DNA of 44,295 nt. Source: Escherichia phage GeorgBuechner. Positions 3,470 through 42,354 of this stretch are shown piece by piece. Position numbers and translations under genes: made by a program. The notes beneath the pieces are model-generated. The model saw only the letters and a program-made list of their open reading frames with translations. It was not told the DNA's origin and made no database searches. Each line of letters starts with the position of its first letter. Within the stretch, counting starts at the first letter, position 1. The DNA is taken from the sequence record MZ501070, one strand, 5' to 3'.

Positions 3470-4556
3470 TCAACATTTGGCGGATCGAATGATTCGCCGT
3501 CACATCTTCACCCAGCGCCTGAGCAATGACCAGGCGCGGAGGGTGCTGGCTATGTGGGAGAAGTTCCGGCCCACATTACTGGGTAAGCTGACCGAGTTAC
3601 TTGATGGCAAAAAGTCCATGAACAACAAGGCACTTACCACACTGTTAACGCAACTCGACAAGACCGTAAAAACGGAACTGCGCGCCGAGTTTAAAGTGCT
3701 GGCGGAGAGCCTGCAGGAGTTCGCCGACACCGAGGCTGATTATCTCGCTGACACACTAACGGCAGCGATCCAGCCCGCTGTCGCCGTACCCGCTGTTGAA
3801 GTAGTTGGCGTTGTTACCGGCGCGCAGATTGCAGCGACGGCAATGAAAAACCCGTTCCAGGGTAATACTATGATGCAATGGCCTGATTCCCTTTCCGAGT
3901 GGACCAGGACGCAGATCGGCAATCAGGTGCGCGCCGGATTCATCCAGGGCAAGCCAACGATGGAAATTATCGCGGACGTGAGGCGCGCGCTCGGCGGGCG
4001 TAGTGCGCAAGCAATCGCAAGCGTTGTTAAGTCCGCGGTCAACCACTATGCGGCGACCGCCCGCGAATTAATGGTAAAAGCTAATGACGATATTCTCGAA
4101 GGTCGCCAATGGTTGGCTACATTGGACACTCATACTTCCCCTATGTGCCAGCTACGCGATCGCCTGTTTTATCCTGTTGACGTCACTCCCGACACCAAAG
4201 GCAAGCGCGGCGGGAAAGTGGTGGCGGGATCACAATATGGCGCTGGTCCGGGCAAGCTGCATTATTGCTGCCGTTCGACGGAGACGTGGAAAGTCAAAGG
4301 TATGGAAGATTGGCCCAGTGGTAAGCGTCCGGCACTGAAGGCTGACGCGGGCCGATTGCTTAGTGAGCAGGTCGACGCGCAAACTGATTTCTTCTCATGG
4401 GTGCAGCGCCAGCCGCGCCATATTCTGGAGGAATTATATGGGGTGCAGCGCGCCGATCAGATTATGCGCGGCGTGAAAGTGCCGAAGATGTTCACCGATA
4501 CTGGCGAACTAATGACTATTGCGCAGCTTAAAAACCGGGGGCTATGGCGTGATTAA
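3453..4556 (+). CDS. Head morphogenesis protein (Mu F / SPP1 gp7-like)
   Basis: 367 aa; contains ATLDTHTSPMCQLRD resembling the conserved Mu-F domain core; overlaps portal stop. Confidence 0.8.
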   Translation: MAKTINQHLADRMIRRHIFTQRLSNDQARRVLAMWEKFRPTLLGKLTELLDGKKSMNNKALTTLLTQLDKTVKTELRAEFKVLAESLQEFADTEADYLADTLTAAIQPAVAVPAVEVVGVVTGAQIAATAMKNPFQGNTMMQWPDSLSEWTRTQIGNQVRAGFIQGKPTMEIIADVRRALGGRSAQAIASVVKSAVNHYAATARELMVKANDDILEGRQWLATLDTHTSPMCQLRDRLFYPVDVTPDTKGKRGGKVVAGSQYGAGPGKLHYCCRSTETWKVKGMEDWPSGKRPALKADAGRLLSEQVDAQTDFFSWVQRQPRHILEELYGVQRADQIMRGVKVPKMFTDTGELMTIAQLKNRGLWRD

Positions 4557-4857
4557 GTATGCAGCGATTGGGTTGGTAATAGGTCTGGCGGTTGGATTCT
4601 GGCAGGGTGACTCCTACCGCACTGGCGTTGAGGCGAGAGCGGCGCAAGAAGCGCAAGCGAAAGCCCAACGGCAGCAAACTAAGGTTGTCGAGGGGGCCGT
4701 GCAGGCAGAACAGGCCCGCGACGTGGAATACCGGACTATCACGAAAGAGGTTGTAAAATATGTTACGCGTCCTAACCGTCCTGATTGCCGTTTTGATGAT
4801 GAGCGCGTGCGGATCAAGCAACGTGCCATCGACGCCGCTAACCGAGTCGGTTTATAG
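4519..4857 (+). CDS. i-spanin (Rz-like) candidate; start could be ATG 4519 or GTG 4549
   Basis: N-terminal TM segment IKYAAIGLVIGLAVGFW followed by Q/A/E-rich predicted coiled coil and C-terminal Cys; contains an embedded +1-frame lipoprotein ORF. Confidence 0.55.
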   Translation: MRSLKTGGYGVIKYAAIGLVIGLAVGFWQGDSYRTGVEARAAQEAQAKAQRQQTKVVEGAVQAEQARDVEYRTITKEVVKYVTRPNRPDCRFDDERVRIKQRAIDAANRVGL

Positions 4858-4990
4858 ACCTCCTTGCACCTTTGAGAATGCCTCGGCGGACCCAGACGAA
4901 GACTTGCTGGTTGATATTAAAAATATGGAGTGTGGTGCGAAGCTGAGGGCGCAAGTGCTGGATTTGCAGAAAATAATTCGGGGGCCGTGA
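4760..4990 (+). CDS. o-spanin (Rz1-like outer membrane lipoprotein) candidate, starts inside the i-spanin ORF in the +1 frame
   Basis: Signal peptide MLRVLTVLIAVLMMSAC with lipobox-like MSAC; +2 residue Gly; short Pro-containing mature part with Cys; stop lies in a terminator hairpin. Confidence 0.55.
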   Translation: MLRVLTVLIAVLMMSACGSSNVPSTPLTESVYRPPCTFENASADPDEDLLVDIKNMECGAKLRAQVLDLQKIIRGP

Positions 4991-5003
4991 TGGCCCCTTT
5001 TCG
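4980..5003. terminator. Stem-loop terminator between late head operon segment and the convergent minus-strand gene
   Basis: GGGGGCC-gtgat-GGCCCC followed by TTTTCGTT on plus strand. Confidence 0.55.
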
Positions 5004-5768
5004 TTAGCGCGGAATACCGCAAATCTCGTTTAGTGTTTTCACGTCCAGCGCCACCGCCGTGGACTTCGGCTTGTCCGGGTAAGGAATGAACTGTTCCACT
5101 TCAGGCCACGCCTTGATCAGCTTCTTATCGGTATTGTGCATATCCAGCACGCCGGTAACAGTTAGTTTGAACGCGTCATACTTAGCACGCAACTCACGGC
5201 GGGCCTTGTCGTTACGGTCCAGGCGCTTACAGAAATCATGGTCCGCCGGGTAGTCTATACGACCGCGTGGTATATAGATCGGCAGCGCTTTCCCGTCGTC
5301 GTCGACTTCGCACACTGACGCTAACAAAATTTCCTCATACCCTGGCACAATATCGCCGAGATCGGGAGACAGTTTATTCATGTATTTATACTCCCAGTAT
5401 CCGCGATGTACTCGGAATCGGTGTCCGTCTCCGCTCAATGACACGGTACGGACGTTTCCACCTGCGTTGATTTCGAAAGTGGCGTCGTAAACGCTGCCTA
5501 TACCATATGGGTTGTCGGCGTCATGTCTATACGTCGCCTTATTGGTGTACACACAGACGCCGTACATCTTCGACGGGTCATCGCCGATTTCTTCAATGCG
5601 CTCACGTAGCTCGGCGAACGTATGAATGCCTTCCGGCATACAGTCCAGCGTAATGGCGTACGCCAGATTTCGAGAGTCCATCATGATTGATTTGGCTTCG
5701 GTCGCGATTTCGTGGTCGCGCAGGATGTTAGCCAGAATCTGGTTTTTAATGTCTTTTGTCAGTCTCAT
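5004..5768 (-). CDS. Hypothetical protein encoded in reverse orientation inside the head gene cluster (moron-like accessory gene)
   Basis: 254 aa from ATG at 5766-5768 (MRLTKDIKNQ...) with SD ACGAGGA; the longer track ORF 5004..6215 is a low-complexity N-terminal extension overlapping the scaffold gene and is rejected; no recognisable motifs. Confidence 0.6.
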   Translation of the reverse strand: MRLTKDIKNQILANILRDHEIATEAKSIMMDSRNLAYAITLDCMPEGIHTFAELRERIEEIGDDPSKMYGVCVYTNKATYRHDADNPYGIGSVYDATFEINAGGNVRTVSLSGDGHRFRVHRGYWEYKYMNKLSPDLGDIVPGYEEILLASVCEVDDDGKALPIYIPRGRIDYPADHDFCKRLDRNDKARRELRAKYDAFKLTVTGVLDMHNTDKKLIKAWPEVEQFIPYPDKPKSTAVALDVKTLNEICGIPR

Positions 5769-5790
5769 TTTTGTGTCCTCGTTGTTGGTG

Positions 5791-5813
5791 TGCAACCAAT
5801 ATATGCAACCAAT
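5791..5813. promoter_or_regulatory. Tandem pair of TGCAACCAAT motifs in divergent intergenic region
   Basis: TGCAACCAAT at 5791-5800 and 5804-5813; on the minus strand reads ATTGGTTGCA x2 directly upstream of the SD of gene 5004..5768. Confidence 0.5.
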
Positions 5814-5916
5814 ACGAGGATTGCAAGCGAATTTTGCGATTATTTTTATCGCTGATAATATTAGAAGCGTGAAGTCGAGCGGGTGGCCCGCTCTGCCACA
5901 ATCCCAGGGGGATAGC

Positions 5917-6621
5917 ATGAAACTTACTAAAGCAGAATATGACGCGTTGCCGGAAGGTATGAAGGCGCTTTTTGTTGCCGATGGCGACGGGTATAAATCA
6001 ACGTTCATGACCGCAGAAGAAGTACAGGCGGAGATCAAGGGTCTGAAAGACAACAACGCGAAGCTGGTGAGCGAGAAGAAAGCAGAAGCTGAACGCCGCG
6101 CCGAAGCAGAGCGCCTTGCGAAAGAGAAAGAGGAAGCCGCCGCGCGCAAAAATGGCGACCTCGAAGCGATCGATAAGTCCTGGAAAGATAAGTTTGCGAA
6201 ACACGAAGCAGACACATCGGGAAAAATCGAAGCCTACCGCAAGCAGATCCACGATCTCACCATCGGCAGCGCTGCCAAAGACCTGGCATCGAAGCTGTTC
6301 GGTAAGAATGCGGGAATCATGCAACGTCACGTTATGGACCGCCTCACTCTGGAGGACGGCGAAGACGGCAGCTTGAAAGTGCGTGTATTGCAGGATGGCA
6401 AACCATCCGCGCTGACTATGGAAGAGCTTGAAAAAGAGTTCCGTAATAACGCCGATTTTGCATCCGTCCTGGCTGGCACGCCAGCCGGTGGCGCGCCTAG
6501 CAAACCGACGCAGGTTGTCGAAGATGTGAAGTCGAAAATCACTATGGGCCACAGCTTCGGTATCACTGACCTTACGAAACAGGCAGGTGAAATCATCGCG
6601 AAGATGGGCGACGACGAGTAA
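5917..6621 (+). CDS. Head scaffolding protein (putative)
   Basis: 234 aa, strongly charged and coiled-coil-like (AEAERRAEAERLAKEKEEAAARK), directly upstream of major capsid gene; SD AGGGGGA before ATG 5917; an in-frame upstream ATG at 5803 lies inside the motif and is not preferred. Confidence 0.6.
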   Translation: MKLTKAEYDALPEGMKALFVADGDGYKSTFMTAEEVQAEIKGLKDNNAKLVSEKKAEAERRAEAERLAKEKEEAAARKNGDLEAIDKSWKDKFAKHEADTSGKIEAYRKQIHDLTIGSAAKDLASKLFGKNAGIMQRHVMDRLTLEDGEDGSLKVRVLQDGKPSALTMEELEKEFRNNADFASVLAGTPAGGAPSKPTQVVEDVKSKITMGHSFGITDLTKQAGEIIAKMGDDE

Positions 6622-11384: not shown

Positions 11385-11418
11385 GCGGGACAAAACGGGA
11401 CGTCCCGTTTTGTCCCGC
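11385..11418. repeat. 34 bp perfect palindrome GCGGGACAAAACGGGAC|GTCCCGTTTTGTCCCGC
   Basis: Read directly from sequence; an imperfect second copy lies at about 11462-11498; each is followed by a TGCATACCTAYTCA...TGCATAAACT segment. Confidence 0.8.
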
Positions 11419-11527
11419 ACCTGCAAAACTGCATACCTACTCACTCCCATTGCATAAACTCAAAACGGGACAAGCGGGACGTCCCGTTTTGTCCCGCCCT
11501 GTAAATGTGCATACCTATTCAGATTTC

Positions 11528-11702
11528 GTGCATAAACTAGGCGGGACAAAAAGCGGGACAGACAAGGGGCGGGACAAAGCGGGACAGCACCCCGTCCCCG
11601 CCAGTGCTGCCGCGGGTTTCAGCCGATCGGGACAAGCGGGACAAACCCCAGTCTTTCAGACTAGACGGGGGTCAACGGCCCCCCTCGTCTGAGACTGAAT
11701 AA
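11528..11702. repeat. Copy A of a duplicated ~175 bp non-coding element: GCGGGACA iterons plus terminal imperfect hairpin
   Basis: GCGGGACA boxes at irregular 10-16 bp spacing, then CCCAGTCTTTCAGACTAGACGGGGGTCAACGGCCCCCCTCGTCTGAGACTGAATAA; near-identical to 38938..39112. Confidence 0.8.
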
Positions 11703-21612: not shown

Positions 21613-21634
21613 AGGCCCCGAAAGGGGCCTATTT
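21613..21634. terminator. Bidirectional stem-loop between convergent genes
   Basis: AGGCCCC-gaaa-GGGGCCT; stop codon of the minus-strand lipoprotein gene lies at the edge of the stem. Confidence 0.5.
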
Positions 21635-21847
21635 GCAGGTTGTGCTTTTGAAATGGTCAACTGACACATACTGGAAGTTAAACGGGTATCCCGCCCTGAG
21701 CATTTTGTGGCCGCTAAAATCCGCGACCCCAAACACGGGGACTGAGTAATCCATGCCGCTATTCTGGTACGTCGCGTCGCAGACTTTAGCTGGCATGTTG
21801 GCACAACCGGACAAAAGAACTGCACAAATCATAATTAAAGTTTTCAT
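21629..21847 (-). CDS. Small lipoprotein, candidate receptor-blocking superinfection-exclusion protein (Llp/Cor-like)
   Basis: 72 aa from ATG 21845-21847 with SD AGGGGA; signal peptide MKTLIMICAVLLSGC with lipobox LLSGC; two further Cys in the mature part; convergent with tail genes and adjacent to the fibre gene. Confidence 0.6.
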   Translation of the reverse strand: MKTLIMICAVLLSGCANMPAKVCDATYQNSGMDYSVPVFGVADFSGHKMLRAGYPFNFQYVSVDHFKSTTCK

Positions 21848-24950: not shown

Positions 24951-24988
24951 TTGCAACCAACCTATTGGTTGCAAGTGAATTTTGCAAC
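24951..24988. promoter_or_regulatory. Inverted-repeat motif TTGCAACCAA-ccta-TTGGTTGCAA followed by conserved TTGCAAGTGAATTTTGCAAC element
   Basis: Perfect 10 bp arms; the downstream 20-mer matches 5821-5840 (TTGCAAGCGAATTTTGCGAT) at 17/20; on the minus strand TTGCAA-18 nt-TATAGT could act as a promoter for gene 24376..24897. Confidence 0.45.
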
Positions 24989-25316: not shown

Positions 25317-25782
25317 GGAGTTCTCCTTCGCTCATTATTTCAATTTGTGCGCTGCCGGTTGGCGGCGCTTCGTCAAATATTATCAATTGCTGGCATTTGT
25401 TATTGCTCGGCCCGACTTCACCGGTGACAGCATGTATAAATCGTATCCGCCAGTCCAGAAGAATTATCAGGTTTGCAGTCTTCCGGGCCAGCCTCGCCCA
25501 CTTAGTCGACGTGTCCTGATTCAGCAGCATGACCGTCCGGCGTCCGTGCGCTGCGCACTCGACCCACGGCAGCGGATCTGAATACGGCGGATTGCACCAC
25601 TTCCACCCTTTCAACTCTGCCCAGTCCACATCAAGCGCGCTGTGCTCCGCCGTGAAGTAACGCGGTAGCAGATGATTGGCGTCGCTCGCCGCCATATCGT
25701 AACGGAATCGGAACTTACGGCGCAGCGGTTTAAATAAAGCTGGCGGTGTGCGCCAGCTATCTTTCTGCTCACTCTTCTGCAT
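25297..25782 (-). CDS. dam: DNA N6-adenine methyltransferase (phage Dam type)
   Basis: 161 aa; DSWRTPPALF near N-terminus and catalytic WCNPPYSD (NPPY) motif. Confidence 0.8.
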   Translation of the reverse strand: MQKSEQKDSWRTPPALFKPLRRKFRFRYDMAASDANHLLPRYFTAEHSALDVDWAELKGWKWCNPPYSDPLPWVECAAHGRRTVMLLNQDTSTKWARLARKTANLIILLDWRIRFIHAVTGEVGPSNNKCQQLIIFDEAPPTGSAQIEIMSEGELLEYLNR

Positions 25783-26233
25783 AGTCTGGGTCTATCGCAT
25801 ACAGGGCAATCTTATCGCCTTTCGTCAAGATGCGCTGCACGCGCTTTGACTCCTCGGCGCTCATAGGGCGAGCGTTCGGGTATAGGCTGCCGTTTGTGGG
25901 ATTGCGCCACGCCACAAGCACCAGGTCTTTACGGTCGATCTTAGACTGGCGGCCCTTCGCGCGCACGTATTCCTCGGCCCGTTTGCAATGCTCGCGCAGA
26001 CCTTCGGCAGTGATGCGGTTTAGCGCGACGGTGGTGGTGTATCCGGTGCGCTGCATAATACCCATCAACTCATACAGCAGATCGAAGCGCTCCTCTAATT
26101 CCTTGCGCGCCTTCTCCTCGCCTTCATAGCTCGCCAGATAGGTGTCTGCCAGCGCGCTAACACGTTCGGCATGTTCGCGGGCTTCGAGGCATTGCGCGGC
26201 CCAGTAATTTTTCTCTTCTTGTAAAATTTTCAT
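25769..26233 (-). CDS. Hypothetical protein
   Basis: 154 aa, charged/helical; SD GGAG; overlaps Dam start. Confidence 0.5.
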   Translation of the reverse strand: MKILQEEKNYWAAQCLEAREHAERVSALADTYLASYEGEEKARKELEERFDLLYELMGIMQRTGYTTTVALNRITAEGLREHCKRAEEYVRAKGRQSKIDRKDLVLVAWRNPTNGSLYPNARPMSAEESKRVQRILTKGDKIALYAIDPDYAEE

Positions 26234-29489: not shown

Positions 29490-29768
29490 CTACGCGACCA
29501 ATTCAGCAACCAATAAATCACAGTCGGCTATGTTGTCGATAACGCGAACGTCAGCACCGCGGCGGGCCATTCGCTCATGTTCACGTACCTGGTGCGGCTT
29601 TGGTTTTCCTCCGGGGCGCTTCACTTCTACGAATACCACTTTGCCGTTTATGATTATAATCAGGTCGGGCGCGCCTGAGCGCCCCTCCCATATCACCTTA
29701 CGGCAGAATCCGCCAACCGCTTTCACCAGCTTCATCAGGTGACTTTGTACCTTGCCTTCTGGTGTCAT
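29490..29768 (-). CDS. VRR-NUC domain nuclease
   Basis: 92 aa; GAPDLIIIINGKVVFVEVKRPGGKPKPHQ matches the D ... E-V-K core of VRR-NUC proteins; start overlaps polymerase stop. Confidence 0.65.
   Translation of the reverse strand: MTPEGKVQSHLMKLVKAVGGFCRKVIWEGRSGAPDLIIIINGKVVFVEVKRPGGKPKPHQVREHERMARRGADVRVIDNIADCDLLVAELVA
29495..29514. promoter_or_regulatory. GCGACCAAT / GCAACCAAT motif pair at the 3' end of the VRR-NUC gene
   Basis: GCGACCAATtcaGCAACCAAT overlapping the last codons of 29490..29768. Confidence 0.35.
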
Positions 29769-36525: not shown

Positions 36526-38790
36526 ATGAGCTTAATTAAATTTGCGGTAACACGACCCGCTAAAAAAGGCGAAAAAGCCAGGGCGGAAAACTTCCAGATG
36601 ACAACCGATGAGTTTTTCGAATTTATCAATGATGCGAAAGAAATCTCCTCGGTGCATATCAACAAGACGGAAGATAAAGCCGAGTATGCGCGCCGCAAGC
36701 GTAAGGCCGATGGGATTGTGGCTTATACTCGTGACGGCTTACGTCGCAAGACCAGTGCGGTGGACCGCTCGATCCTGTTCTTCGATATAGACCGTACCGA
36801 CACCCGCACCTTACGCCGCTGCCGTAAGGCGTTCATCGACGCGGGGCTGGAACACGTATTTCACACCACTACCGGCGACCGCCACCCGCTGAAAGGCGGC
36901 ACGCGTTGCGCCCGTTTCCTGGTGCTCACCGATAGGCCTGTACCTGCTGAAGACCTGGGCCGCGTCCAGTATGCACTATTACACCAACTGGGCCTGTCAG
37001 ATGTGGACTTCGATGATTGTACGAAAGACACAAACCGCCTTATGTACCTGCCTCACCAGCAATCGGTTGTCAAGTGTCACTACGGCAAACGTGCCCGCGT
37101 CCGTCGTCTGCTTCGCCTGGCGGATAAGCTGGGAGTGGAAAAAGAGGAAGTACGACGCGAACTGACCCAGGGCGATGACGGCGTGGCGGACGGTATTCTG
37201 GATTGGTGCTTCCAGGCAGGATTCGAACCGCTGTCGTCCGGTCGTGGTTATGAAGTACCGTGCCCGAACGAACACCTGCACAGTGGTGAAGGGTCCACCG
37301 CAATCATGGTTAAGGATGGCGAGATCCGTTTCAAGTGTATGCACACCGGCAACGAGTGTTGCTCGGAACTGAACAGACACCAGCACCTGGCGCTACGTCT
37401 TATCGGGATCCCGGACCACCTGAACGTCGAACCGCACAACATGTCACGTAAGCAAATCGCCGCCATCCTCCCTGGACTGGACGACGAGGAAGTGGAATCG
37501 TGCTATGCGCATATCGTTGATGCGGTCGGAGACGGCGACGAGTACGGCGTATGTACCGACGCTGACCTGGATAACGAACCGGTCGCACTGTTCAGTAAGC
37601 ACGACCCGATCATAGAAGGCCTGGTCAACTTCAAATCGACCTGGTATATGGCTGGCGAATCGAACATCGGTAAATCGTTCTACGTGCTGGGGCAAATGGG
37701 TGCGGTTGCCGCGGGGATTCCGTTCGGCGGTGCGAAGGTCGTCCAGTCCCATTGCTTCTATTTCGACGCGGAAGGTGGCGAAGCCTCCAACCAGCGTAAG
37801 GAAGCATTGCAGATCAAATACGAGCACGACCTCGACAAGCTGCACATTATCGATCTGCAATCACGCGGCTGGGATATCACCAGCAAATCCGGCTTGCGTG
37901 AAGTTATCAGCTTCATCAACCGCACCGCTAACGGCGAACCGGTTGGCCTGGTGGCGTTCGACTCACTCAACCAGACGGTTGCGCTGCGGTCCGCCGATGC
38001 CAAACCGTTCGACGAGAACAACGCCAGCGATATGGGCGAAGTGGTCAAGGCGCTGAAGGCCATCGCGGAAAATACAGGCGGCAGTGCGGGCGTTATCCAC
38101 CACCCGGCGAAGGGTGCAAACGGCAGCAGATCTCCCCGTGGGTCCGGCGCGCTGCATGGCGCTGTCGATTCTGCGTTCTTCCTGGAGCAACCGGACGACA
38201 ATCAGCCGGGCCAATTGAACCTGTATCACGAAAAGGCACGTAACGGCATCAAGCAAGCGCCACGCGGATTCGTCCTGCTCAAGTGCAAGGTTAAGGTGGA
38301 TCTCCGCAAGTCCGAAGCGTTCGAGTCACACCAGTCCACCAGCACCGGGCCTGACTTCGGCGATGTGGTTGCCGGTTGGGACGTCAAGCCAATTGCATCC
38401 ACACCACGCGACGAGACTCTGTACCTCGTACCGGTCGCCCTGGCACCGTTCGCCATCGAACAGGCGAAGGCCGCGGGCAAAGCAGCAGTTAAGGAAGAGA
38501 ACGCAGCAGGACCGCGCAACGAAAAAGAGAAAGTGCTTTATGCGGCGCTGGAAAAACTGATGGAAGATAACCCGGACCATACCGGATTCAGCAAATCGGC
38601 AATTGTCCGCCAGGCTGGGCTTGCGAAAGGTGGCACATCGACGAAGGCAATTGACGATATGGTCGAGCGCGGAGTGCTAGGTTTTTATACCGATCCGCAC
38701 ACCGGGGCCATCTATGGGTCGTCGAATATCGTCATTAAAACGAATATACCAATCACGCTTTCTGCGACCGATGACGATTTAAAAGATTAA
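36526..38790 (+). CDS. DNA primase/helicase-like replication protein with P-loop ATPase domain
   Basis: 754 aa; Walker A GESNIGKS and Walker B-like VAFDSL in the central region; large N-terminal domain of primase type by position and size. Confidence 0.65.
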   Translation: MSLIKFAVTRPAKKGEKARAENFQMTTDEFFEFINDAKEISSVHINKTEDKAEYARRKRKADGIVAYTRDGLRRKTSAVDRSILFFDIDRTDTRTLRRCRKAFIDAGLEHVFHTTTGDRHPLKGGTRCARFLVLTDRPVPAEDLGRVQYALLHQLGLSDVDFDDCTKDTNRLMYLPHQQSVVKCHYGKRARVRRLLRLADKLGVEKEEVRRELTQGDDGVADGILDWCFQAGFEPLSSGRGYEVPCPNEHLHSGEGSTAIMVKDGEIRFKCMHTGNECCSELNRHQHLALRLIGIPDHLNVEPHNMSRKQIAAILPGLDDEEVESCYAHIVDAVGDGDEYGVCTDADLDNEPVALFSKHDPIIEGLVNFKSTWYMAGESNIGKSFYVLGQMGAVAAGIPFGGAKVVQSHCFYFDAEGGEASNQRKEALQIKYEHDLDKLHIIDLQSRGWDITSKSGLREVISFINRTANGEPVGLVAFDSLNQTVALRSADAKPFDENNASDMGEVVKALKAIAENTGGSAGVIHHPAKGANGSRSPRGSGALHGAVDSAFFLEQPDDNQPGQLNLYHEKARNGIKQAPRGFVLLKCKVKVDLRKSEAFESHQSTSTGPDFGDVVAGWDVKPIASTPRDETLYLVPVALAPFAIEQAKAAGKAAVKEENAAGPRNEKEKVLYAALEKLMEDNPDHTGFSKSAIVRQAGLAKGGTSTKAIDDMVERGVLGFYTDPHTGAIYGSSNIVIKTNIPITLSATDDDLKD

Positions 38791-38865
38791 ATGCTGCGCG
38801 CATTGGTTGCCGATATGGGGATTCCCATATCGCTAAAAGATTAAATCTTGCGCGCATTGGTTGCC
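38779..38865. repeat. 32 bp direct repeat x2 flanking a palindrome, overlapping the primase stop
   Basis: TAAAAGATTAAATGCTGCGCGCATTGGTTGCC and TAAAAGATTAAATCTTGCGCGCATTGGTTGCC (2 mismatches) with GATATGGGgattCCCATATC between them; a third ATTGGTTGCC at 38891-38900. Confidence 0.8.
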
Positions 38866-38937
38866 ATTTTGAGTGTTTTTAGCTGGTCGTATTGGTTGCC
38901 GTGTAGTGTAAATATAATGCATAGTTATGCAGTTTTA

Positions 38938-39112
38938 GTGCATAAAGTAAGCGGGACAAAAAGCGGGACAAACAAGGGGCGGGACAAAGCGGGACAGCAC
39001 CCCCGTCCCGCCCCGGATGGCGCGGCTTCCAGAGGAGCGGGACAGGCGGGACAAACCCCAGTCTTTCAGACTAGACGGGGGTCAATGGCCCCCCTCGTCT
39101 GAGACTGAATAA
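38938..39112. repeat. Copy B of the duplicated ~175 bp GCGGGACA-iteron plus hairpin element
   Basis: Near-identical to 11528..11702 with a diverged central ~40 bp; ends in the same imperfect hairpin. Confidence 0.8.
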
Positions 39113-39171: not shown

Positions 39172-39303
39172 GGCAACCAATGCGAGTTGCATTATGCTGA
39201 GTGAAAATGCAGTTTGCAGCCACAGCAGATAGCGATCAACTTTTTCATACGCATGATTAATATTGGTTGCATTCAGCCTGGCACCCTGCTAGATTGGTTG
39301 CAC
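39172..39303. promoter_or_regulatory. Cluster of three GCAACCAAT / ATTGGTTGCA motifs upstream of gene 39326
   Basis: GGCAACCAAT 39172-39181, ATTGGTTGCA 39262-39271, ATTGGTTGCAC 39294-39303 followed by CACCAACGAGAGGA and ATG. Confidence 0.5.
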
Positions 39304-39325
39304 ACCAACGAGAGGACCAAACAAA

Positions 39326-39805
39326 ATGAAATTTCCAGTAACCATCAAAGACGGTAAATCAACTATCACCTTCACCAGCAACGACCAGGGCACCTATGAA
39401 AGCGGGGCGACTTGCATGTCTACCCTGGACGATGTGATGATTCGTGTTAATTCCGGTAAAGCCTCGATTGTTGACGACAACACTAAGAAGGACCGAACAA
39501 TGAGAGCACTAATCTGGAATTACTCACTGGCCCTGGCAAAGCTGAACGAAGCGAAGGCGCTGAACGGCAACGTAGACCGTGCGCGCCAGTTTGCGACACT
39601 GGCACACCAGTCAATCATGTGTGCGCTAGACGATATGGACGCCAGCATGGATGGCCTGGGTCCGCTGCGTAAGGCAATCCATGAATACGCGCTGGCATTC
39701 TCCCGTGAGCGCCTGGCTTATCGCTTCGGTATTGGCGAGACGGCAGTGACAAACGTCGCCCGGATTAAAGCCCAGCGCGAACTATTCGCCCAGCTTGCGA
39801 AATAA
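39326..39805 (+). CDS. Hypothetical protein
   Basis: 159 aa; SD GAGAGGA; upstream leader nearly identical to that of minus-strand gene 5004..5768. Confidence 0.5.
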   Translation: MKFPVTIKDGKSTITFTSNDQGTYESGATCMSTLDDVMIRVNSGKASIVDDNTKKDRTMRALIWNYSLALAKLNEAKALNGNVDRARQFATLAHQSIMCALDDMDASMDGLGPLRKAIHEYALAFSRERLAYRFGIGETAVTNVARIKAQRELFAQLAK

Positions 39806-41343: not shown

Positions 41344-41634
41344 ATGGATAAGCTAAACGAGTGGTTATTCGCCCTCGCGTGTCTGGCTGGCGGCTTCGTA
41401 GGCGCACGCATTCATGGCGAGGCTACGAAAGGGCCGCTAAACTTCGTTTTATATATCGTAGTTGGCTTCCTGTGTGCCATATTTGGTGCGCCAGCTATCG
41501 CCGAGTGGGCAGGCTTATCTGGCGAGCGCACTGTCGCCGGTTTGGGCTTCGTAACTGCAATCTTCTGGATGCCAATAGCCGCCCGGATCAGGGAGACTAT
41601 TGAGTCGTTCCGACTTCCGGGGGGCGCAAAATGA
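41344..41634 (+). CDS. Holin-like membrane protein (three predicted TM segments)
   Basis: 96 aa; hydrophobic stretches WLFALACLAGGFVGA, FVLYIVVGFLCAIFGAPAIA, GLGFVTAIFWMPIAA; positioned two genes upstream of endolysin. Confidence 0.45.
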   Translation: MDKLNEWLFALACLAGGFVGARIHGEATKGPLNFVLYIVVGFLCAIFGAPAIAEWAGLSGERTVAGLGFVTAIFWMPIAARIRETIESFRLPGGAK

Positions 41635-41876
41635 TTATCTCCGTCCTGTTGTTTGTTATCATAGGGGCTTCGTCCCTGTTTAACGTGTATGCGCCGTCCG
41701 TCCAGGATGGCATTTTAGGCCGGGTGTTATATCTGCTAACGGCGATGATCTGCGTTATCGGATTGTTGCAAACAGGAGACGTATCTGACACCACCTGGAC
41801 CGCGTTAATCTGGCTGTTTGCATTGCGCACGCTGCGTAATGCTGTTTTGAATGGGGTAAAACATGCGATTCAGTGA
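41631..41876 (+). CDS. Holin/antiholin-like membrane protein
   Basis: 81 aa; TM stretches MIISVLLFVIIGASSLF, VLYLLTAMICVIGLL, WTALIWLFAL; overlaps endolysin start. Confidence 0.45.
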   Translation: MIISVLLFVIIGASSLFNVYAPSVQDGILGRVLYLLTAMICVIGLLQTGDVSDTTWTALIWLFALRTLRNAVLNGVKHAIQ

Positions 41877-42354
41877 CAACGGTCTACGATTTACGGCAGC
41901 ATGGGAGACGTTTAGCCCGGTGCCGTATTTCGCGACTAAGAAAGAGCAGGCCCGCGGCCTGTACACCTGGGGTTATGGTCACACTGGCACTAACCCGCCT
42001 CGAAGCATTACCCGCGCGGAAGCGCTGGAGCTACTTAAGCGCGATGTGGCGTATGCTGAGGACTGGGTGAACAAATACGCGCATAAGAGCATTAACCAGG
42101 CGCAATTCGACGCGCTGGTGGACCTGGTTATCAATGCAGGTCAAGGTCCGATCGTACCGGACCATATTGCCAATGACTTCGACGACGCGGTGCGCTTGGG
42201 CGACTGGGCAAAGGTCCGTGCTACGCTGCCACAGTTCCGCAAGCAAGGCGGGGAAGTGCTTAAGGGTCTGGTCCGTCGAGCAATCGGCAGACAGGCTTTA
42301 TTCGATGGAAAGCAGTGGGACGTTGCCGAGAAGATCGGACGTAACGCAGCATAA
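41863..42354 (+). CDS. Endolysin (GH24 lysozyme/muramidase type)
   Basis: 163 aa; N-terminal Glu region (AAWETFSP) and TWGYGHTG segment typical of T4/lambda-type lysozymes; no N-terminal signal-anchor. Confidence 0.8.
   Translation: MRFSDNGLRFTAAWETFSPVPYFATKKEQARGLYTWGYGHTGTNPPRSITRAEALELLKRDVAYAEDWVNKYAHKSINQAQFDALVDLVINAGQGPIVPDHIANDFDDAVRLGDWAKVRATLPQFRKQGGEVLKGLVRRAIGRQALFDGKQWDVAEKIGRNAA

Follow-up and report, generated by a model that had tools for sequence, protein, structure and literature searches.

The reverse-oriented gene in the head region of Escherichia phage GeorgBuechner is identified as the Dhillonvirus nmad5 gene and probably encodes a non-catalytic adaptor protein

The reverse-oriented open reading frame located in the head gene region of Escherichia phage GeorgBuechner is, judged by its sequence, the nmad5 gene of the genus Dhillonvirus, for which the protein family as well as the phenotype of an orthologue are already known. 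The window analyzed here is the whole stretch of 44,295 nucleotides of record MZ501070 and represents a Dhillonvirus genome, whose capsid gene is common to 157 phage records at an identity of at least 80%. Within this genome, nmad5 is probably an accessory gene, presumably expressed early, which codes for a non-catalytic binding or adaptor protein, and the known substitution K216E would represent a gain of function at an interaction interface. An earlier note on this DNA had described a self-contained and reverse-oriented gene carrying non-structural cargo for the interaction with the host. The self-contained organization and the non-structural nature hold true, but the gene is found nearly universally in Dhillonvirus and has already been named and studied.

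For the encoded protein, a match over the full length to the Pfam family PF18757, the "nucleotide modification associated domain 5", was obtained (E=6e-56, 190.1 bits at a gathering cut-off of 27), in which residues 1-253 align with positions 1-206 of the 206 profile positions. Within PHROGs, the protein is assigned to phrog_1965. The conserved features of PF18757 are an N-terminal R-L-T helix, a central G-G and the C-terminal elements T..KL...WPE and LN..CG.P. The family-conserved residues R2, G104, T213, L217, W221, P222, P229, L246, N247 and G251 are all present in Nmad5 of the window. The former statement that no motif can be assigned to the protein is thereby superseded, and several GenBank records of Dhillonvirus, including BF9, SECphi18 and UDS3lw, already annotate this open reading frame as Nmad5. 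The family comprises 513 clusters at 50% identity and was reportedly defined in a study by Iyer et al. in 2013. Here, the rationale for the name was taken from the Pfam naming and from later papers. The name is based on an association with nucleotide-modification genes, which is a contextual feature and no criterion for membership. In the window, nmad5 has no nucleotide-modification genes as neighbors; the adjoining genes encode the spanins and the scaffolding protein.

That the gene of 254 codons on the minus strand is real, as proposed before, is confirmed by the open reading frame itself, and both the Pfam match and a dN/dS ratio of 0.125 among the relatives are beyond chance. The ATG at position 5768 is regarded as the true start codon, because the profile alignment begins at residue 1 of Nmad5, because MRLTK forms the N-terminus of every homologue aligned and because the Shine-Dalgarno sequence, which had been noted earlier, is found at an appropriate place upstream (Table 1). 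The antisense frame of nmad5 stays open beyond this ATG, over 403 codons at 5004-6215 of the window (minus strand), and runs across the intergenic DNA into the first part of the scaffold gene. The over-extended coding sequence in the GenBank record of the closely related phage SM_S22 results from this open frame; there, CDS0006 (5005..6009, L055) is 80 codons too long and encodes 334 amino acids. Since CDS0006 starts 80 codons too early, K296E of SM_S22 corresponds to K216E in the numbering used here. The scaffold coding sequence of SM_S22 is likewise over-extended, with a start at 5804. The described position of nmad5 between the spanin pair and the scaffold gene is correct, with the start of the latter corrected to 5917. 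Nmad5 has a pI of 5.8 and its maximum Kyte-Doolittle mean over 19 residues is 0.99. In line with the earlier note, no transmembrane segment was detected by the Kyte-Doolittle analysis of the whole protein, and this also applies to a signal peptide or any other hydrophobic segment. The GC content of the gene is 51.6% vs. 54.6% for the genome.

Table 1. Coordinates of nmad5, of the surrounding features in the window and of open reading frames found in the adjacent slot of related phages (the latter with the handle of the respective contig)
Feature	Position	Strand	Remarks
nmad5 coding sequence	5004-5768	minus	254 aa + TAA stop; stop 5004-5006, start ATG 5768-5766; full-length Pfam PF18757 Nmad5/phrog_1965
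Shine-Dalgarno sequence GAGGA	5776-5780	minus	7 nt 5' of the nmad5 ATG; kept in relatives
Sigma-70-like promoter candidate	5798-5826	minus	-35 TTGCAA 5826-5821, 17-nt spacer, -10 TATATT 5803-5798; prediction
TGCAACCAATA, two exact direct copies	5791-5801, 5804-5814	unstranded	overlap spacer and -10/+1 of the nmad5 promoter
GC-rich hairpin	4980-4998	both	between the convergent o-spanin and nmad5 stops; candidate bidirectional intrinsic terminator
Divergent intergenic region, nmad5/scaffold	5769-5916	unstranded	148 bp; extra unrelated minus-strand ORF in some relatives
Spanins	4519-4990	plus	i-spanin 4519-4857 (N-terminal TM segment, then coiled coil); convergent with nmad5
o-spanin	4760-4990	plus	lipoprotein signal ending in Cys; stop 4988-4990; overlaps i-spanin
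Head scaffolding protein gene	5917-6621	plus	divergent from nmad5
172-aa orphan, slot nmad5/scaffold	L012 1913-2431	minus	SM_W22
phrog_24635 (104-109 aa), slot nmad5/scaffold	L056 5852-6166; L008 2632-2961	minus	SM_A8, JL1
phrog_2510-like ORF (105 aa), slot nmad5/scaffold	L026 5681-5998	minus	

The upstream region of nmad5 had been described as motif-bearing, and indeed two exact copies of TGCAACCAATA as well as a sigma-70-like promoter are found there. The -10 box and the leader TATATTGGTTGCACACCAACAACGAGGAC...ATG of nmad5 are near-identical to those located 5' of the gene at 39326. There, the promoter and leader (39267-39325) consist of TTGCAT, a spacer of 17 nt, TAGATT and subsequently GGTTGCACACCAACGAGAGGACC. 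The gene that follows (39326-39805, plus strand) codes for a protein of 159 amino acids belonging to phrog_9839 and stands first in the small-gene cluster that follows the primase-helicase gene. The promoter region of nmad5 is kept in the relatives which harbor the one-gene cassette. At the other end, the gene was said to be bounded by a terminator. Here, the hairpin between the two stop codons is terminator-like in the scoring on both strands, with folding energies of -15.5 and -13.8 kcal/mol; however, since the z-scores are only -1.4 and -2.2, a terminator is plausible but not strong. The spanin pair ends at this hairpin as well, sharing it with nmad5, and is encoded among the head genes, some 36 kb away from the holin and endolysin genes (41344-42354). 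With a predicted promoter, a Shine-Dalgarno sequence, a hairpin and an orientation opposite to that of its neighbors, nmad5 is, as far as these predicted signals go, organized like a moron or accessory cassette.

The motif TGCAACCAATA, the gene-sense form of which is ATTGGTTGCA, occurs 13 times in the window when one mismatch is allowed, compared to an expected number of 0.77. Most copies are intergenic and fall into the replication and small-gene regions. Sites of the form TGCAACCAAT(A) include 5791, 5804, 21902, 24963, 26531 and 26548, and further sites are present at 29505, 35985, 39261, 39292 and 40002. A -10-like hexamer is located 16-18 nt past the embedded TTGCnn at 7 of 20 TTGGTTGC sites (background 3.8%, P ~6e-6), which suggests that the motif marks a class of sigma-70-type promoters. 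The ATTGGTTGCA motif probably serves as an extended -35 element, as the operator of a phage regulator, or as both. The two copies in front of nmad5 were considered as the -35 box of its promoter, and this was rejected since no -10 box is present at the right spacing. They could equally represent an operator that delays expression of the gene.

Two further observations concern the repeats of the genome. A perfect palindrome, TGCAACCAA-CCTA-TTGGTTGCA, is present at 24952-24973. The sequence GCGGGACA is found in 16 copies vs. 2.1 expected, almost all of them in two clusters (11385-11643 and 38951-39053). The first cluster lies in a non-coding gap of about 700 bp before the tape-measure gene. The second one follows shortly after the primase-helicase gene, and repeated "aaaagattaaat..gcgcgcATTGGTTGCC" units adjoin it at 38780-38900. 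The repeats resemble iterons and are candidates for an origin or for regulator-binding arrays.

Within the genus, DNA of nmad5 is detectable in 148 of the 157 related records and is of full length in 139-144, and the gene occupies this slot in about 140-148 of these Dhillonvirus-like genomes. The pairwise dN/dS is 0.125 over the whole gene, with 0.058 for the capsid gene, and differs between the parts of the protein: it is lowest in residues 176-254 (0.02), amounts to 0.07 in residues 1-44 and is highest in the central residues 45-175 (0.19-0.21). This retention together with the purifying selection speaks for a near-core gene in Dhillonvirus rather than for sporadic cargo. The earlier note had regarded conservation in this position as part of the head module as an argument against its proposal; the position is indeed conserved, the function is not that of the head module.

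The locus itself is mosaic. At synonymous sites (dS), nmad5 has diverged twice as far as the capsid gene of these phages, and in a phage with a capsid gene of 99.7% identity nmad5 is only 87% identical. Alleles with identities as low as 63% and 38% are present, the latter in the Dhillon-like contig L026, where it resides beside head genes that are about 90% similar, as estimated by eye from the translations. Furthermore, natural truncations exist. JL1 (L008 3001-3225) keeps only codons 1-57 of nmad5 as part of an open reading frame of 74 amino acids, and Teewinot (L011 2501-2605) keeps only the last 105 nt. Both provide independent evidence that nmad5 is dispensable. Between nmad5 and the scaffold gene, the slot is empty in the window, and in some relatives it harbors open reading frames which are unrelated to each other (Table 1) and for which no Pfam family was found. 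This slot looks like a hotspot for accessory genes. Based on these genome comparisons, nmad5 is classified as a near-core, selected gene in a mosaic and recombination-prone accessory locus.

Outside of the genus, the gene is present in different surroundings. In some phages, nmad5 takes second or third place in an early or replication operon beside a divergent HTH regulator, followed by genes for a DUF2800 nuclease, an Enc34-type ssDNA-binding protein, PolA, an SNF2 helicase and Dam. In others it is located after PolA or adjoins DEAD-helicase, VRR-NUC or PD-(D/E)XK genes. Using tblastn, the family was detected in 59 records of Stx-converting phages. In about 20 prophage-like contigs of IMG/VR, nmad5 lies just downstream of a CI-like S24 repressor, and a scan of genome contigs revealed a single Enterobacter prophage locus with Nmad5. 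Among the homologues of other phages that were examined, none was located in a structural module.

In HK542 and an Stx1 phage, nmad5 directly follows N, and no modification genes are present in the vicinity. The respective proteins, HK542_033 and SH2026Stx1 gp17, belong to the same family, are about 32% identical over the C-terminal 100 amino acids and look like accessory proteins, for which these records give no function. These lambdoid and Stx homologues comprise 207 amino acids; their genes belong to temperate phages and follow N in the pL operon, whereas the window derives from a virulent phage with nmad5 lying among the head genes. In phage lambda, the region after N contains ral and other genes for host interference. 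The small gene ral, known for restriction alleviation, is situated just downstream of N, as are the lambdoid nmad5 homologues, and this analogy is one of position only.

Only in the YuA/M6/SN1-like phages is nmad5 located inside a cluster for thymidine hypermodification. The proteins YuA gp15, M6 and SN1_019 belong to the same PF18757 family and have the conserved C-terminal segment in common. They are, however, only about 186 amino acids long, and the tblastn match to the protein of the window is restricted to residues 173-253 at 38-40% identity. Their genes lie between those for the 5-hmdU kinase/aGPT-Pplase and the dUMP hydroxymethylase, whereas the phage of the window has no such genes.

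The structure of Nmad5 was predicted with AF2. A first model, based on 29 mostly close sequences, was set aside due to a pLDDT of 62.8, and the model used here was built on an alignment of 62 sequences, representatives of the 50% clusters, and reached a pLDDT of 89.7. For this model, no match in the PDB was returned by Foldseek, and no enzyme fold was recognizable in the fold searches of the PDB. In the BFVD, the matches were restricted to proteins of the Nmad5 family. On the sequence level, nothing meaningful was obtained against all PDB chains (best E=0.97), no defense-protein model of PADLOC matched, and the only match within NCBIfam, to a sigma factor, was non-significant (E=0.17). A confident structural match to a virion component, which would have spoken for a head protein, was sought in the PDB and BFVD libraries and none was found. 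Throughout the 62 homologues (20-63% identity), the invariant positions are limited to W221, L246 and N247. Conservation in at least 90% is seen for R2, G104, T213, L217, P222, P229 and G251, and K216 is the majority residue with 63%. A conserved set of Asp, Glu, His, Cys or Ser residues is not present across these homologues.

The phenotype of the orthologue has been described in a single study, which covers the toxicity as well as the relation to Tmn (Yamashita et al., 2025, Commun Biol; PMC11846954). Mutants escaping Tmn, derived from SM_A8 as well as from SM_S22 lacking anti-Tmn, carried the same substitution, K216E. Reverting K216E restored sensitivity to Tmn, and its introduction alone was sufficient for escape. 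Deletion of nmad5 was viable, the gene thus being dispensable for plaque formation, and the deletion mutant was still Tmn-sensitive. Wild-type nmad5 gives no protection from Tmn, only K216E does, and cloning of nmad5 failed, apparently due to toxicity. The authors interpreted Nmad5 as a DNA-modification enzyme and its modification as the feature sensed by Tmn (PMC11846954).

Nmad5 of the window is identical to that of SM_S22 in 248 of 254 residues (98%), thus differs by six substitutions only, and possesses K216, the residue that is mutated in the published Tmn-escape phages. The nmad5 genes of SM_S22 (CDS0006) and SM_A8 are orthologues; in SM_S22 the position, strand, promoter region and one-gene cassette are the same as in the window, while SM_A8, unlike the window, contains an extra open reading frame of 104 amino acids upstream of nmad5. 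Since deletion of nmad5 does not lead to escape, Nmad5 is no simple trigger of Tmn. A comparison can be drawn to RIIB of phage T2, which is also a non-structural phage protein in which mutation leads to escape from Tmn (PMC13001434, preprint). In contrast to Nmad5, RIIB is sufficient to activate Tmn, and its nonsense mutants escape (PMC13001434); a sequence relationship between both proteins does not exist.

With respect to anti-Tmn, the window encodes at 25769-26233 (minus strand) a coiled-coil protein of 154 amino acids, which is 88% identical to CDS0035 of SM_S22. In SM_S22, CDS0035 is flanked by the Dam and HNH genes; SM_A8 lacks it. On this basis, CDS0035 is very probably the published anti-Tmn (ORF35), and GeorgBuechner may therefore carry both anti-Tmn and wild-type nmad5. 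The label "DNA ligase" given by PHROGs to the family of 25769-26233 looks like a misnomer. Nmad5 was furthermore considered as Ksap1, the Dhillonvirus trigger of KpAvs2, and this was rejected, since Ksap1 is a protein of 74 amino acids encoded elsewhere.

The reading of Nmad5 as a non-enzymatic adaptor is based on the absence of conserved catalytic residues, of a known fold and of hypermodification genes. The latter are not present in Dhillonvirus, and in the near-identical annotated genomes only Dam- and Dcm-type methylases are encoded, about 20 kb away. Mechanistically, transcription of nmad5 would depend on the RNA polymerase of the host and probably take place early, its promoter being a paralogue of that at 39267-39325. 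Transcription from a promoter of this type would imply that nmad5 is regulated separately from the surrounding head genes, and the gene would be expressed together with the presumably early small-gene cluster at 39326. The conserved N-terminal helices and the C-terminal segment (T213, L217, W221-P222, L246-N247, G251) would form a helical core, to which the faster-evolving, beta-rich central insert of residues 45-175 is attached. This core may contact a conserved partner, either the DNA-metabolism machinery of phage or host or a host factor. K216E would sit in the conserved segment which binds this partner, and an altered interaction would then result in Tmn no longer being activated, rather than in the loss of a DNA modification. 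The change is regarded as a gain of function, because the deletion mutant stays sensitive to Tmn while K216E escapes. More speculative is the extension to the entire Nmad5 family, namely that its members are no modification factors but non-enzymatic, probably early proteins, the fold of which is absent from solved structures, that dock with the invariant C-terminal segment on a conserved component of the host or its defense and act as hubs for takeover or anti-defense, monitored by immune sensors such as Tmn and retargetable by the one substitution K216E; we consider this to be rather doubtful.

The interpretation of Nmad5 as an enzyme of DNA modification, or as an essential subunit of one, with Tmn sensing the modified Dhillonvirus DNA, is favored by the family name, by the real association with the genes of 5-hmdU kinase, aGPT-Pplase and dUMP hydroxymethylase in YuA/M6/SN1-like phages and by the view of the authors themselves (PMC11846954). 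Yet, the deletion mutant is reported there as still Tmn-sensitive, and a product of Nmad5 is therefore ruled out as the only trigger of Tmn. [quoted passage not shown] Neither catalytic residues nor an enzyme-like fold were recognized, and the lambdoid and Stx homologues directly after N have no modification genes nearby. A new enzyme fold, which uses backbone or cofactor chemistry, is possible; as a whole, an enzymatic role is judged to be improbable. The wild-type protein might also act in anti-defense or host takeover against a defense system or host factor absent from the laboratory hosts tested, with K216E retargeting it to Tmn. The promoter type as at the head of the cluster at 39326, the placement directly after N or CI in temperate phages, the faster-evolving central domain, the allele replacement beside conserved head genes, the deep synonymous divergence and the varying orphan genes of the adjacent slot would all agree with such a role, as would the dispensability and toxicity described for the orthologue (PMC11846954). 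On the contrary, no defense system is known to be inhibited by wild-type Nmad5, protection against Tmn was not conferred (PMC11846954), and neither PADLOC nor the other searches gave a match. The near-universal retention and the very strong constraint on the C-terminal third across phages of many hosts fit a housekeeping-like accessory role at least equally well. This makes anti-defense of the wild-type protein a tentative and rather unlikely explanation.

The earlier note had also named superinfection exclusion, and some sie and cor genes are, like nmad5, reverse-oriented cassettes in a late-gene region. Since Nmad5 is a soluble, mildly acidic protein lacking a signal peptide and a transmembrane segment, this role is very unlikely, even more so as the family mostly resides in replication modules and the genome already encodes a cor-like lipoprotein. 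The latter (MKTLIMICAVLLSGC..., 21629-21847, minus strand) is placed between tail genes on the opposite strand and is preceded by a promoter of the ATTGGTTGCA type (TTGCAT, 17 nt, AATACT). Likewise very unlikely is a protein of head morphogenesis or of the virion that is merely encoded on the opposite strand of the head module. Here, only the position between the MuF-like/spanin and the scaffold/capsid genes and its conservation can be put forward. Against it stand the lack of a structural match to any virion protein, the opposite strand with a promoter of a non-late type, the homologues in replication, recombination or early modules, and the viability of the deletion mutant (PMC11846954), together with the natural truncations in JL1 and Teewinot.

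The family name as well as the sole experimental paper call Nmad5 a DNA-modification enzyme, and neither sequence, predicted fold, genomic context nor the published genetics give support for catalysis. Should Nmad5 be a binding protein at the interface to bacterial immunity instead, this would explain why the change of a single residue, and not the deletion of the gene, defeats Tmn, and several hundred clusters of phage proteins would have to be re-labelled. Since the K216E allele has already been used in the engineering of therapeutic phages, the mechanism is of practical value as well.
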